A stretch of DNA of 64,000 nt, from contig JARRRI010000006.1 of assembly GCA_037380845.1 (NCBI GenBank), forward strand, positions 12,782-76,781, in the 5' to 3' direction. Source of the stretch: Candidatus Sulfobium sp. (GTDB lineage: Bacteria; Nitrospirota; Thermodesulfovibrionia; Thermodesulfovibrionales; UBA6898). Shown piece by piece: positions 54,001 to 57,000 of the stretch. The number at the start of each line of letters is the position of its first letter. The stretch's first letter is position 1. A program made the position numbers.

Positions 54001-57000
54001 TTCCAGGACTGTGCGGGCAATACGGAGGCCTTCCTCAGGGCGAACAAGCCTAGCGTAAGGAAGATTGTTCTCGACGTCCTGTCTGTTGACTACCATGAGA
54101 CCATAATGGCCCCCGCCGGAAAACAGGCCGAGAAATCGCTGGACGACGTTGTGAAAAACCAGAAAGGTAAATACCTGGCTGTCGTTGAGGGCTCTATACC
54201 GCTGAAAGACAATGGGGTATATTGCTGCGTCGGCGGCAAGAGTGCAATCGACATCACCAGGGAGGTGTGCGGCAATGCGATGGCGACCATTGCGGCCGGG
54301 ACCTGTGCAACCTTCGGAGGTATCCCGGCGGCGGCACCCAATCCGACCGGTGCCGTTGGCGTTCAGGAAGCAATGCCGGGCATTACCGTTGTGAATCTTT
54401 CGGGCTGTCCCATGAACCCCGACAATCTGACAGCGGTGGTTGTACACTTCCTTACCTTTGGAACTCTGCCTGCCACGGACCGGCTGAACAGACCTCTTTT
54501 TGCCTATGGCGAAAGGATCCACGACCATTGTCAGAGAAGGGCACACTACGATGCCGGCCAGTTCGTCAGGCAGTGGGGTGACGAGGGGCACAGGCTCGGC
54601 TGGTGCCTTTACGAAATGGGATGCAAGGGGCCGGATACTTTTCTGAACTGTCCTGCCATAAGGTATAACATGTCCGTTCTATAAGAGACTTCCCAAAGTC
54701 CCAGGCTTCGGCGTCGAGGCGACTGCGGATAAGGTCGGAGCTGGCGTAGCGGGAGTGGCTGTTGCCGGTGTCATTGCCCACAGGATTGCCCGGGCCGTAA
54801 GGGGAAAAGAGAAGGAAGAAGAAAAAAATAAATAGTCAGGACGAAAGGAGAATGTGATCATGGCCAAGATAGTCGTTGATCCTATCACACGGATCGAGGG
54901 GCATCTCAGGATAGAAGCTCAGGTAGAAGGCGGCAAAGTGGCCGACGCATGGTCTTCCAGTACCATGTTCCGGGGGATAGAGATCATCCTGAAGGGGCGG
55001 GATCCAAGGGATGCATGGTACTTTGCCCAGCGAATATGAGGCGTCTGAACAACGGTTCACGCCAACAGCTCCGTGAGAGCTGTAGAAAATGCTCTGAGTA
55101 TCACCATACCGGAAAATGCGAGGCTCATGAGGAACCTCATAACCGGTATCCAGTTTATCCAGGACCACGTCATACATTTTTATCACCTCCACGCACTTGA
55201 CTGGGTGGACCTGGTAAATGCGCTGCAGGCCGACCCGGCCAGGACGGCCTCCCTCGCACAGTCTATTTCGGACTGGCCGAAGTCCAGCGCGACTTATTTC
55301 AAGGGTATCAAAGACAAGCTGAAGACCTTCGTAGAGAGCGGGCAACTGGGCATCTTCGCCAACGCATACTGGGGTCACCCGGCCTACAAACTCCCGCCGG
55401 AAGCCAACCTCATGGCAGCCGCCCACTATCTGGAAGCTCTTGACTGGCAGAAGAACGTGATCAGGATTCATGCCATTCTGGGCGCCAAGAACCCTCATCT
55501 TCAGACTTACCTGGTCGGCGGGATGGCGTTGCCGATAGACCTCAACAGCGAGAGTGCACTCAATGACGGCGGCCTGACCGAAATCGCCGAACTGAGCAGC
55601 AAGGCAAAGGACTTCGTTGAACAGGTCTACATTCCCGACCTGCTGGCCGTCGCGTCGTTTTACAAGGAGTGGTTCGGCTATGGCGCGGGAATAGGAAACT
55701 ACCTGGCCTATGGTGAATTCCCCAACGATACGGTTTCCAATACAGGCAATCTGTGGCTGCCCAGGGGCATTATCAAGAATAAGGACCTCAGTAAGGTATA
55801 CCCCGTAGACCAGGAGAAGATAGCCGAGTATGTTACGCATTCATGGTATGAATACAGCAACGGGAACGACACGGCAAGGCATCCGTGGAAAGGAGAGACT
55901 GATTATCATTACACCGGTCCCCAGCCGCCTTATCAGTTCCTGGATACGGCCAGGAAATATTCGTGGATAAAGGCTCCTCGTTATGAAAATGAGGCTATGG
56001 AAGTCGGACCGTTGTCGAGGATGCTGGTGGCTTACGCATCGGGCCACAAGCGTATCAGGGAAGTGATAGACTCGGTTCTGAAGAAACTGAACGCCGGTCC
56101 TGAAGCACTGTTCTCGACGCTCGGAAGAGACGCCGCCAGAGGGGTAGAGACGCTCGTTACGGCGGAGATGATGAGCGTATGGCTTAACCAGTTGACGGCT
56201 AACATCAAGAAAGGCGACGTCAGCATTCATAATAACAGTAAGTGGGAGCCCTCGACCTGGCCCAGGGAGGCCAAAGGCTACAGCCTGAGCGAGGCGCCGA
56301 GAGGTGCGTTGGGCCACTGGGTCAAGATCAAGGATGAGAAAATTGAGAACTATCAGTGCGTAGTCCCCAGTACCTGGAACGGATCTCCGAGAGACGCTTC
56401 CGGCAAGAAGGGTGCGTACGAGTCGTCTCTCATGGGTACCCCTGTGGCGGAACCTGACAAGCCCATAGAGATCCTGAGGACGGTGCACTCGTTCGACCCG
56501 TGTATGGCCTGCGCGGTTCATGTACTCGATGCCGAGGGGAAAAAAGTGACCAGGATACAGGTGGTTTAGAGAAAGGAGGGAGCCATGCAGAAGAGAGTTT
56601 ATGTATGGGAAGCGCCGGTCAGGATAGTCCACTGGCTGATCGCCCTTTGCCTGCTGGTCCTTGCTTTCACCGGAGTGTATATCAGCTACCCGTTCATCGT
56701 TGGAACGACAAGCAAACAGTATGTAATGGGGTGGAGCAGGTTTATCCATTTTGTTGCCGCTTATGTGTTTGTGGTGGCCCTTGCAGTGCGAATTTACTGG
56801 GCGTTCGCCGGGAACCGCTATGCATCGTGGAGGGCATTTTTCCCCTTCAGCGGCAAGAGGGCCGGCGGTATGTTAAAGAATATACTGTTCTACTCACTCA
56901 TCATAAAGAGACCGGAGCCTGAAACCGGGCATACGCCGCTTGCGGGGCTCACATATCTTGTGATCTTCATACTGTACCTGATCCAGATAGTAACGGGGTT

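Follow-up and report, generated by a model that had tools for sequence, protein, structure and literature searches.

Both N-Terminal Nickel-Motif Cysteine Codons Are UGA in a Predicted Group 1 Uptake [NiFe]-Hydrogenase of Candidatus Sulfobium

The Hydrogenase Gene Cluster and Its Group 1 Assignment

The window is a 64,000-nucleotide stretch of contig JARRRI010000006.1 from Candidatus Sulfobium sp. (order Thermodesulfovibrionales), and all features of the hydrogenase locus lie on its + strand. A HyaD/HybD-family hydrogenase maturation endopeptidase is encoded at 52657..53178 (Pfam HycI, 120.1 bits; NCBIfam TIGR00140 hupD, 162.5 against a cut-off of 151.8). The small subunit follows in two parts, and behind it stand the large subunit at 54860..56569 and the Ni/Fe-hydrogenase b-type cytochrome subunit at 56585..57241 (PF01292, 105.7 bits; TIGR02125, 159.9 against a cut-off of 121.5). 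A c-type cytochrome gene (57247..57828; Pfam Cytochrome_CBB3 and Cytochrom_C) lies immediately downstream of the cytochrome b gene and is a putative member of the same operon.

The 5' part of the small subunit (53803..54672) starts with an ATG at 53803 that is preceded by AGGAGG, carries the Tat signal SRRDFMKF and the Fe-S cluster domain (Oxidored_q6; NiFe_hyd_SSU_C, covering profile positions 1-53 of 80; TIGR00391 hydA, 376.6 bits), and ends at an assembly gap. The 3' part (54673..54835), which comprises PFYKRLPKVPGFGVEATADKVG and the membrane anchor, was recognized in another frame by alignment with four relatives and with the contigs of separate runs; the hydrophobic C-terminal anchor segment is found here and in the relatives. 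In the alignment with the four relatives, a 74-column gap falls at 54672|54673. The contigs of runs X1 and X8 hold 74 additional letters at exactly this place, and a loose end from run X9 encodes ..SEPAFWDTM.. there. The 3' part is therefore out of frame because 74 nt are missing ahead of 54673, and since the X1 and X8 contigs supply them, the break is an assembly gap and not a dead gene; we accordingly rejected the small subunit as a pseudogene. The initial annotation had named a Tat-signal small subunit and a cytochrome b, both of which we found, but it had overlooked the interruption of the former.

The large subunit is a single frame of 569 codons when two UGA codons are read through. It matches PF00374 with 801.6 bits (residues 38-554), and residues 3-554 align to 3myr_B, the chain of what we take to be the Allochromatium vinosum enzyme. 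A 15-residue C-terminal extension, VLDAEGKKVTRIQVV (56522..56566), follows H554, the aligned His at which both best solved chains stop. The HyaD/HybD-type protease encoded alongside is the expected processor of this extension, which it would presumably cleave off. Judging from the Tat-type small subunit, the cytochrome b, the HyaD-type protease and the nearest solved structures, the enzyme is predicted to be a Group 1 uptake [NiFe]-hydrogenase, in agreement with the earlier reading; resting on subunit make-up, profiles and structures, the assignment stops above the sub-group (1b, 1d or 1e). The top 51 of the best 60 solved-chain matches are periplasmic or membrane-bound uptake enzymes by name, and Huc-type "Hydrogenase-2" and Group 3 enzymes rank only after them.

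Two UGA Codons in the N-Terminal Nickel Motif

The N-terminal motif of the large subunit reads AQRI-U-GV-U-TTVH in translation. UGA 1 (codon 60, 55037..55039) takes the place of the first Cys of R-x-C-G-x-C and UGA 2 (codon 63, 55046..55048) that of the second, and the two best solved structures have the Cys pair of RICGVC at the positions aligned with U60 and U63. Takano et al. 2026 (PMC13582414) describe these positions as a terminal Ni ligand and an Ni-Fe bridging ligand, respectively. The two TGA are the sole in-frame stops ahead of the terminal stop in the frame 54860-56569. The PF00374 family motifs R-x-C-G-x-C-x3-H and D-P-C-x-x-C-x-x-H are both present, with only the N-terminal Cys pair written as UGA; the C-terminal motif is DPCMACAVH with TGC-type Cys codons, and it is likewise of the Cys type in all the relatives read. 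The UGA codons thus occupy two of the four metal-binding Cys sites, where they most likely denote selenocysteine.

Our retranslation agrees with the initial annotation on the single 569-codon frame, on both TGA codons and on the DPCMAC motif, and it also bears out the split of this gene by the gene caller: calling with table 11 yields two pieces, 54854-55039 and 55073-56569. The contigs of the three runs X1, X8 and X9 span at least 54673-55081 with no letter differing, and the two TGA are hence not an error of the present assembly. The 59 residues before UGA 1 align to solved enzymes. In codons -12 to -1 before the UGA, the amino acids are kept while synonymous sites vary freely, which shows that the region before the UGA codons is translated, as is the conserved region behind them.

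A SECIS-Like Hairpin Downstream of the UGA Codons

A hairpin with a 7-bp stem (ACAGCUC/GAGCUGU) and the apical loop CGUGA (55072-55076) lies inside the coding sequence at 55065..55083, and its identification as SECIS-like is based on covariation and synonymous conservation. It starts 25 nt past the last base of UGA 1 and 16 nt past that of UGA 2. The same hairpin and its compensatory pairs had been pointed out before; the pairs were recovered, but the 20 nt given as spacing from the second UGA has to be corrected to the 16 nt measured here.

Among 86 distinct sequences, pair 34-48 occurs as A-U (24), U-A (17) and G-C (9), pair 35-47 as G-C (49) and C-G (9), and pair 36-46 as C-G (77) and U-A (5). 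These three pairs change on both sides, with 40 such cells, and none of 500 shuffles matches the covariation or the percentage paired, although the sequences are related and the shuffle counts overstate their independence. Slid registers all score below the main register. The compensating changes alter amino acids (AGC/GCU, UGC/GCA, GCC/GGC and GCU/AGC, and GCA/UGC in a CxxU form). About one-third of the sequences, the UCG group, fall outside the main register and would require the stem to be shifted, with one A bulged out, judging by eye and by RNAfold. Synonymous entropy drops to 0.55 at codons +6 to +17, compared with 0.84 elsewhere, and the Val codon in the loop is nearly always GUG. In addition, all 86 sequences have G40, which is the first or second base of the loop. 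In PMC13582414, bacterial SECIS elements have a G at position 1 or 2 of the apical loop, a rule with which the loop CGUGA complies.

Four Cys-only orthologues of the main clade, which are related to each other, retain two or three pairs at most at the place of the hairpin. Judged by these alignments, the hairpin appears to be a structure that is upheld by selection and lost in Cys forms, as is required of a SECIS. The SECIS of the selD gene of the same genome has the loop CGUGC, which starts 35 nt after the U of the selD UGA, and the hydrogenase loop CGUGA starts at the same spacing of 35 nt after the U of UGA 1. The folding energy of the 48 nt after UGA 2 is no more stable than that of synonymous recodings (150 per sequence; mean z -0.1; p<=0.05 in 0 of 99 UxxU sequences), and the support for the hairpin is therefore taken from covariation and synonymous conservation, not from energy. 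A genome-wide search for an in-frame UGA followed by a hairpin with a CGUG loop returned selD alone; its filters pass over the present gene and any loop of a different kind, and it is hence of little bearing on other selenoproteins.

Distribution of the UxxU Form and Sec/Cys Exchange

Of the 121 genomes sampled from the order, 59 have the two-TGA form, corresponding to 60 of 103 match rows with exactly two TGA, and the order-wide pattern described earlier is thereby reproduced in a larger sample. We read 36 two-TGA loci; each has its TGA pair at the two Cys codons and DPC[ML]AC as its C-terminal motif, again as had been claimed. A scan of species genomes finds a UxxU large subunit in at least 99 species-level genomes (99 among the 119 pattern matches listed are the hydrogenase gene), and since the pattern demanded V at the second x and V-H after the motif, other UxxU variants would escape this count. 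These genomes are labeled Nitrospirota, Chloroflexota, Methylomirabilota/Rokubacteria, Acidobacteriota and others; the UxxU Group 1 form extends beyond the order Thermodesulfovibrionales. All-Cys relatives at 67-76% identity are frequent in databases.

On a tree of 222 rows, the CxxC and CxxU relatives interleave with the UxxU sequences, with 17 changes between Sec and no Sec, 13 of which are forced by well-supported branches; Cys is therefore functionally tolerated at both sites. The scan loci in the trees were picked by motif. A tree of 109 rows had hinted that UxxU is ancestral and that the Cys forms are revertants, a reading that we dropped after adding 113 all-Cys homologues.

Recoding of the Two UGA Codons

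The genome encodes the selenocysteine machinery: a tRNA-Sec, selA adjoining the single selB, and selD, which itself contains a UGA. We found SelA in 115 of the 121 sampled genomes, and among the UxxU genomes of other phyla tRNA-Sec and SelB in 5/5 and SelA in 4/5. From the sequence evidence, we consider it likely that this Group 1 uptake hydrogenase has both UGA codons recoded as Sec via SelB and one SECIS hairpin. Both codons of the N-terminal motif would be recoded in translation without termination. The hairpin may bind SelB and recruit it together with Sec-tRNA(Sec), and Sec would enter at codon 60 and then at codon 63, with a single SECIS presumably serving both. To our knowledge, no biochemical experiment has shown a single SECIS to direct two SelB-dependent insertions spaced by 9 nt, and the locus could be a small natural model for the way in which SelB and one such element act on a pair of UGA that are three codons apart. 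The mature site would then hold selenolates as a terminal Ni ligand (U60) and as one Ni-Fe bridge (U63). At the C-terminal motif both ligands would stay sulfur, among them the terminal Cys that accepts protons and whose place is taken by Sec in classical [NiFeSe] enzymes.

The main competitor, which we regard as clearly less likely, keeps SelB and the same hairpin and lets a selC*-type tRNA-Cys(GCA) (tRNA-ReC) insert Cys at one or both UGA, giving an all-Cys or one-Sec enzyme, possibly in a selenium-dependent manner. Such a tRNA is indeed encoded in the genome at C62:31154-31247, where the initial annotation had placed it. It is 94 nt long with an architecture like that of tRNA-Sec, has an 8-bp acceptor stem and the discriminator U before CCA, scores 47.3 bits against RF01852, and adjoins the selenium-metabolism gene yedF. 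It agrees with the description of tRNA-ReC/selC* in the text of PMC13582414 (80 nt or more, GCA or UCA anticodon, discriminator U); the same text, citing Vargas-Rodriguez 2018, states that selC*-type tRNAs can insert Cys at UGA with a downstream SECIS, and it reports an enrichment of tRNA-ReC among the Group 4 genomes with UxxU. Either UGA codon, or both, could thus yield Cys, a residue that the interleaved Cys forms indicate to be acceptable. However, the link between this tRNA and the UxxU hydrogenase, which had also been raised, proved weak: selC*-type tRNAs were verified in 32/59 UxxU genomes vs 27/62 other genomes of the order (lower bounds from related genomes), the carriers including a CxxC-only genus (g17) and genomes lacking the present hydrogenase. 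Two queries found no selC*-like tRNA in any of the five UxxU genomes from other phyla, all of which do have tRNA-Sec, although these are metagenome-assembled and absence is not implied. With carriers also among non-UxxU genomes and none found in the five other-phylum genomes, we rejected selC* as a specific explanation of UxxU. Furthermore, tRNA-Sec(UCA) matches UGA, but selC* with its GCA anticodon is mismatched at the wobble base, and if Cys were the product, keeping two UGA codons and a SECIS across phyla would, by our reasoning, bring no evident benefit. Sec is the residue that we consider more likely than Cys to be inserted.

It is very improbable that the UGA codons are not read through at all, be it that the gene is a pseudogene, that the TGA pair is a sequencing artefact, or that translation starts at a GTG at 55073 and gives a 498-residue product. 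Gene callers do produce fragments of 480-498 residues from such genes (7 among the 120 database proteins listed), and the small-subunit gene is broken in the present assembly. However, that break is the assembly gap described above, the independent run contigs concur on the two TGA, and a 498-residue product would be without the N-terminal nickel motif. The 59 codons upstream of the UGA are conserved as protein with synonymous change free, and the TGA pair falls at the exact Cys codons in the 36/36 loci read from the order and in at least 99 scan matches.

Comparison with Known Hydrogenases

Selenium in [NiFeSe] hydrogenases is associated with oxygen tolerance and high H2-production activity. 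Classical periplasmic [NiFeSe] hydrogenases share with the predicted enzyme the Group 1 periplasmic [NiFe] fold and Sec as a Ni ligand, but their single Sec takes the place of the first Cys in the C-terminal motif (DPUxxC), whereas here this motif is DPCMAC and UGA stands at the two N-terminal ligands. We take PDB 1cc1, 2wpn and 5jsu to be such classical Group 1a enzymes, from Desulfomicrobium baculatum and D. vulgaris Hildenborough. The large subunit scores 344.5 bits to 5jsu_B vs 753.6 to 3myr_B, and the NCBIfam [NiFeSe] cut-offs are missed for HysA NF045518 (411.6 vs 780), the small subunit NF045520 (199.4 vs 470) and NF033181 (555.1 vs 600). By these scores, the enzyme lies outside the classical [NiFeSe] (HysAB, Group 1a) clade. 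The standard membrane-bound Group 1 enzymes (3myr, Hyd-5 in 4c3o, and E. coli Hyd-1) are the best matches over residues 3-554, with 753.6 and 690.2 bits, and they have the motifs, the predicted C-terminal processing site, the Tat small subunit and the cytochrome b in common with the present enzyme. Compared with them, both N-terminal ligand codons are UGA here and the coding sequence contains a SECIS-like hairpin.

A close parallel in codon use is provided by the Group 4 [NiFeSe] hydrogenases, whose N-terminal nickel motif reads UXXU, CXXU or UXXC in PMC13582414. As proposed here, one downstream SECIS was proposed there for both UGA codons, its loop has a G in first or second place, in one group as part of a Val GUG codon, Cys-type relatives are interleaved, and tRNA-ReC is raised as a caveat. 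In contrast, Group 4 enzymes are energy-converting, cytoplasm-facing complexes, whereas the present enzyme is a Tat-exported Group 1 hydrogenase with a cytochrome b; the tRNA-ReC enrichment described for Group 4 UxxU genomes also has no clear counterpart for selC* in our sample of the order. For Groups 1 and 3, the same study places Sec at the C-terminal motif, three CXXU sequences excepted, and measured against it selenium at the N-terminal ligand pair would be new for natural Group 1 enzymes. Our literature searches on UxxU hydrogenases, two-selenocysteine large subunits and selenocysteine in Nitrospirota/Thermodesulfovibrio found no report of a Group 1 UxxU enzyme among the matches listed, which were judged partly by title.

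On balance, we lean towards the view that the UxxU enzymes form a widespread natural Group 1 class, present in at least 99 species-level genomes, which would bind Ni through a terminal and a bridging selenolate, unlike every characterized [NiFe] or [NiFeSe] active site, and in which one SECIS would direct two Sec 9 nt apart and the Sec/Cys states would have been swapped more than a dozen times. As gene callers fragment UxxU genes, such genes are probably miscounted or misclassified when hydrogenases are surveyed in Nitrospirota and Chloroflexota. If the view is correct, a natural Group 1 enzyme whose selenium sits on a bridging ligand and on the terminal ligand of the N-terminal motif would represent a third active-site type, comparable with engineered single variants, and the selenium could affect catalysis. 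Evans et al. 2024 (PMC11212049) engineered such variants in E. coli Hyd-2, with HybC 61 and 64, the equivalents of U60 and U63, among the Sec sites. All four single Cys-to-Sec variants retained H2-oxidation activity, and in the passages cited only C546U was called markedly different. Those are single laboratory substitutions made by UAG suppression, whereas the present locus would be a natural double one, specified by UGA and a predicted SECIS.

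Large-subunit frame and its two UGA codons

The large subunit of the [NiFe] hydrogenase is encoded on the forward strand at 54860-56569 as a single translated frame of 569 codons, whose only internal stops are the TGA triplets at codon 60 (UGA1, 55037-55039) and codon 63 (UGA2, 55046-55048). Both codons lie in AQRI-U-GV-U-TTVH, and DPCMACAVH forms the C-terminal motif. The standard code divides the gene into two ORFs of 61 and 498 codons, in agreement with the split described in the initial annotation. The read-through product matches PF00374 with 801.6 bits over residues 38-554 (Pfam), and residues 60 and 63 align to both Cys of RICGVC in the two best solved structures; H554 aligns with the terminal His of both solved chains, and the window protein runs 15 residues further. 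Both UGA codons are covered, with 0 differing letters, by assembled contigs of three sequencing runs (X1, possibly the source sample; X8; and X9, from another study), and hence they are not an error of this assembly. The translation, the structure alignment and the contigs of the three runs all bear out the proposal that both Cys of the N-terminal nickel motif R-x-C-G-x-C are TGA in one 569-codon frame (the UxxU form). In the 59 codons 5' of UGA1, the amino acids are kept and the synonymous sites are free to vary, which indicates that these codons are translated in the large-subunit frame. Nearly all UxxU sequences use AUA for the Ile preceding UGA1 (55034-55036; columns 1-3 of alignment A1), with a synonymous entropy of 0.41 against a possible maximum of 1.58, which may reflect a codon-context constraint on recoding.

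Operon and hydrogenase group

The genes follow the order HyaD/HybD-family maturation endopeptidase (52657-53178), small subunit, large subunit, Ni/Fe-hydrogenase b-type cytochrome (56585-57241; TIGR02125, 159.9 bits versus a cut-off of 121.5) and c-type cytochrome genes. The small subunit carries the twin-arginine signal SRRDFMKF. Its frame ends at 54684, and a different frame encodes the final 57 residues with the membrane anchor. Aligned with four relatives, the gene lacks exactly 74 nt between 54672 and 54673, which encode the segment ..GTSWP..GH.C.GC..FWD... This junction is spanned, with 74 additional letters, by an X1 contig and an X8 contig, and an X9 contig breaks off there in a loose end encoding SEPAFWDTM. 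We therefore rejected the reading of a dead small-subunit gene; an assembly gap causes the false frameshift and stop.

The Tat signal, anchor, cytochrome b and protease make Group 1 membership, as initially assigned, well supported, with 1b, 1d and 1e as candidate sub-groups. The top solved relatives of the large subunit are membrane-bound or periplasmic uptake enzymes, with 753.6 bits to 3myr_B, 690.2 bits to 4c3o_A (Hyd-5), about 587-624 bits to the Desulfovibrio [NiFe] enzymes, and about 615 and 561 bits to E. coli Hyd-1 and Hyd-2, respectively. Membership of the classical selenium ([NiFeSe]) clade was considered and rejected: its solved chains give only 304-345 bits, and its NCBIfam models stay below cut-off for both the large (411.6 versus 780) and the small subunit (199.4 versus 470). 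In the classical enzymes Sec is the terminal ligand of the C-terminal pair, whereas the UGA codons of the window enzyme lie at the N-terminal pair.

The stretch 57247-59573, 3' of the hydrogenase cytochrome b, encodes a cytochrome c of mono-haem type, an ORF resembling multihaem cytochrome c and a second ORF resembling cytochrome b; together these might form an enlarged module for electron transfer. A gene pair for CODH/acetyl-CoA synthase lies upstream of the hydrogenase genes, and NuoE/F/G-like (HoxEFU-like) genes come after this pair (37868-47720).

Hairpin downstream of UGA2

A SECIS-like hairpin (ACAGCUC, loop CGUGA, GAGCUGU) is located at 55065-55083; the hairpin of the initial annotation is thus present, with its start 16 nt after UGA2 instead of 20 nt. 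The covariation supports this hairpin but the plain stability test does not: the 48 nt after UGA2 are no more stable than synonymous recodings (mean z -0.1; p<=0.05 in 0 of 99 sequences). Among 86 distinct UxxU sequences, pair 34-48 is A-U in 24, U-A in 17 and G-C in 9, pair 35-47 is G-C in 49 and C-G in 9, and pair 36-46 is C-G in 77 and U-A in 5. In none of 500 shuffles was the covariation score, the number of doubly changed cells or the paired percentage as high as in the alignment, and all six slid registers scored below the hairpin register, so that the compensatory pairs reported initially are upheld. The compensating changes are amino-acid replacements at codons 7 and 11 after UGA2, with the pairs Ser/Ala (AGC-GCU), Cys/Ala (UGC-GCA), Ala/Gly (GCC-GGC) and Ala/Ser (GCU-AGC), and Ala/Cys (GCA-UGC) in one CxxU form. 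Approximately one third of the sequences, with UCG at codon 8, fall outside the main register; by eye and RNAfold, they would fold into a stem that is one position out of register and contains a bulged A, with the loop GGU, and an AGG UCG sub-variant would be unbulged again.

Synonymous entropy is 0.55 at codons +6 to +17 versus 0.84 elsewhere, and the loop Val codon is GUG almost without exception. The loop G at column 40 is invariant, which fits the rule, cited in section 18 of PMC13582414, of a G at position 1 or 2 of bacterial SECIS loops. In a small control of four Cys-only main-clade orthologues, two of them close kin, the A-S-V/I-R-A-V peptide is kept, only 2-3 pairs can form at the hairpin site, and three of the four have Ile AUA at the position of the loop Val GUG. 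The selD of the window genome likewise contains an in-frame UGA (SSCAG-U-ASKF; contig C20, UGA at about 72243), and the loop of its 8-bp SECIS hairpin, CGUGC, begins 35 nt past the U of that codon. Counted in this way, the hydrogenase loop CGUGA begins at the same distance, 35 nt, from UGA1 and at 26 nt from UGA2.

Distribution of the UxxU form

In 121 genomes of the window's order, the large subunit was matched (E<=1e-50) in 97, and 60 of the 103 match rows, belonging to 59 genomes, hold exactly two TGA as counted from the table. The 50 loci examined comprise 36 UxxU, 8 CxxU and 6 CxxC forms; all 36 UxxU loci have TGA at both Cys codons and the C-terminal motif DPC[ML]AC, and the conservation of both TGA noted earlier among relatives therefore stands. 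A scan of one genome per prokaryotic species with the degenerate DNA pattern R-x-U-G-V-U-x-x-V-H matched at least 119 stretches; among those listed, the N-terminus of this hydrogenase accounts for 99 (64 of 80 with full flanks, 35 of 39 with short flanks) and chance matches for the remaining 20. These at least 99 hydrogenases are labelled, with possibly imprecise MAG labels, as Nitrospirota (52), Chloroflexota (31), unassigned (10), and single genomes each of Methylomirabilota, Rokubacteria, Acidobacteriota, Thermodesulfobacteriota, Myxococcota and Pseudomonadota. The Group 1 UxxU hydrogenase is real and widespread.

That the form had been missed is due in large part to gene callers, which break the gene up. 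In public protein collections, UxxU genes appear only as fragments of 480-498 residues (7 of the 120 matches listed), and the other 113 are all-Cys relatives of 67-76% identity. Passages of the 2026 survey PMC13582414 place UXXU in Group 4 only, unlike the Group 1 enzyme of the window, and C-terminal Sec in Groups 1 and 3, except for three CXXU sequences from Baltazar 2011. Two selenoproteome reviews list UxxU for other protein families only. Text searches of the open literature turned up no earlier description of a UxxU hydrogenase in Group 1.

Selenocysteine or cysteine at the UGA codons

The window genome encodes tRNA-Sec(UCA), selA adjoining the sole selB, and selD, and SelA is found in 115 of the 121 genomes of the order. 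It also bears a 94-nt selC*-type tRNA-Cys(GCA), a long tRNA-Sec-like tRNA (contig C62, 31154-31247), with a yedF selenium-metabolism ORF 25 nt 3' of it (11273-11878 of locus L064; TIGR03527, 191.8 bits versus a cut-off of 110). Cys could be inserted at UGA in selC*-bearing genomes, the window genome included. Among the best 60 long BLAST matches to the selC* gene in the order sample (loci L192-L251), ARAGORN called 36 as tRNA-Cys(GCA), 90-99 nt long; the remaining 24 (23 uncalled, 1 miscalled) agree with them in the 5' half, in the anticodon loop CUGCAAA and in the T-arm, and have longer variable arms, through which gene length varies from about 90 to about 127 nt. The association of selC* with UxxU genomes invoked initially was not recovered: as lower bounds, selC*-type genes were verified in 32 of 59 UxxU versus 27 of 62 other genomes (Fisher's test on a hand cross-tabulation of related genomes, p=0.28). 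The carriers have UxxU, CxxU, CxxC or no copy, and include the CxxC-only genus g17. In the relative G042, a selC*-type tRNA (contig C8, 3433-3528) lies ~0.9 kb from a CxxC large-subunit gene (4407-6095).

Genes for tRNA-Sec and SelB are present in all five UxxU genomes examined from other phyla (one Methylomirabilota, one Acidobacteriota and three Chloroflexota), and a gene for SelA in four of them. A selC*-like tRNA was found in none of the five with the tRNA-Sec covariance model (E<=1e-6; the window selC* gives 47.3 bits, E 2.6e-8, in its own genome) or BLAST with the window selC*. Since selC* is not specific to the UxxU hydrogenase and apparently not needed for it, Sec is favoured at the UGA codons.

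With Sec as the favoured residue, the hairpin would be bound by SelB with Sec-tRNA(Sec), UGA1 would be decoded first and UGA2 three codons on, one SECIS probably serving both, and both inserted residues would be Sec. From homology and passages of PMC13582414, residue 60 would be a terminal Ni ligand and residue 63 a Ni-Fe bridge. The C-terminal pair stays Cys; one of the two is the terminal ligand, a proton relay according to PMC11212049, whose place Sec takes in classical enzymes. Catalysis or oxygen tolerance may be affected; the same source describes E. coli Hyd-2 with a single engineered Sec at the equivalent positions 61 and 64 as still active.

Evolution of the Sec and Cys states

A second Group 1 paralogue clade (L044-L050 and L137), of ~50% identity, is CxxU in most members, with a single UxxU form (L044 and L137, identical rows) and a CxxC sister. 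Its hairpin is different (8 bp, loop GCUU, 10 nt after UGA2), which suggests a separate acquisition of Sec. In a tree of 109 locus-derived large subunits, biased because the cross-phylum loci were picked by motif, the CxxU and CxxC forms are nested among UxxU. Addition of 113 all-Cys database homologues (222 rows, FastTree) gives a minimum of 17 Sec/no-Sec changes, 13 of them forced by well-supported branches; the Sec and Cys states have been swapped many times.
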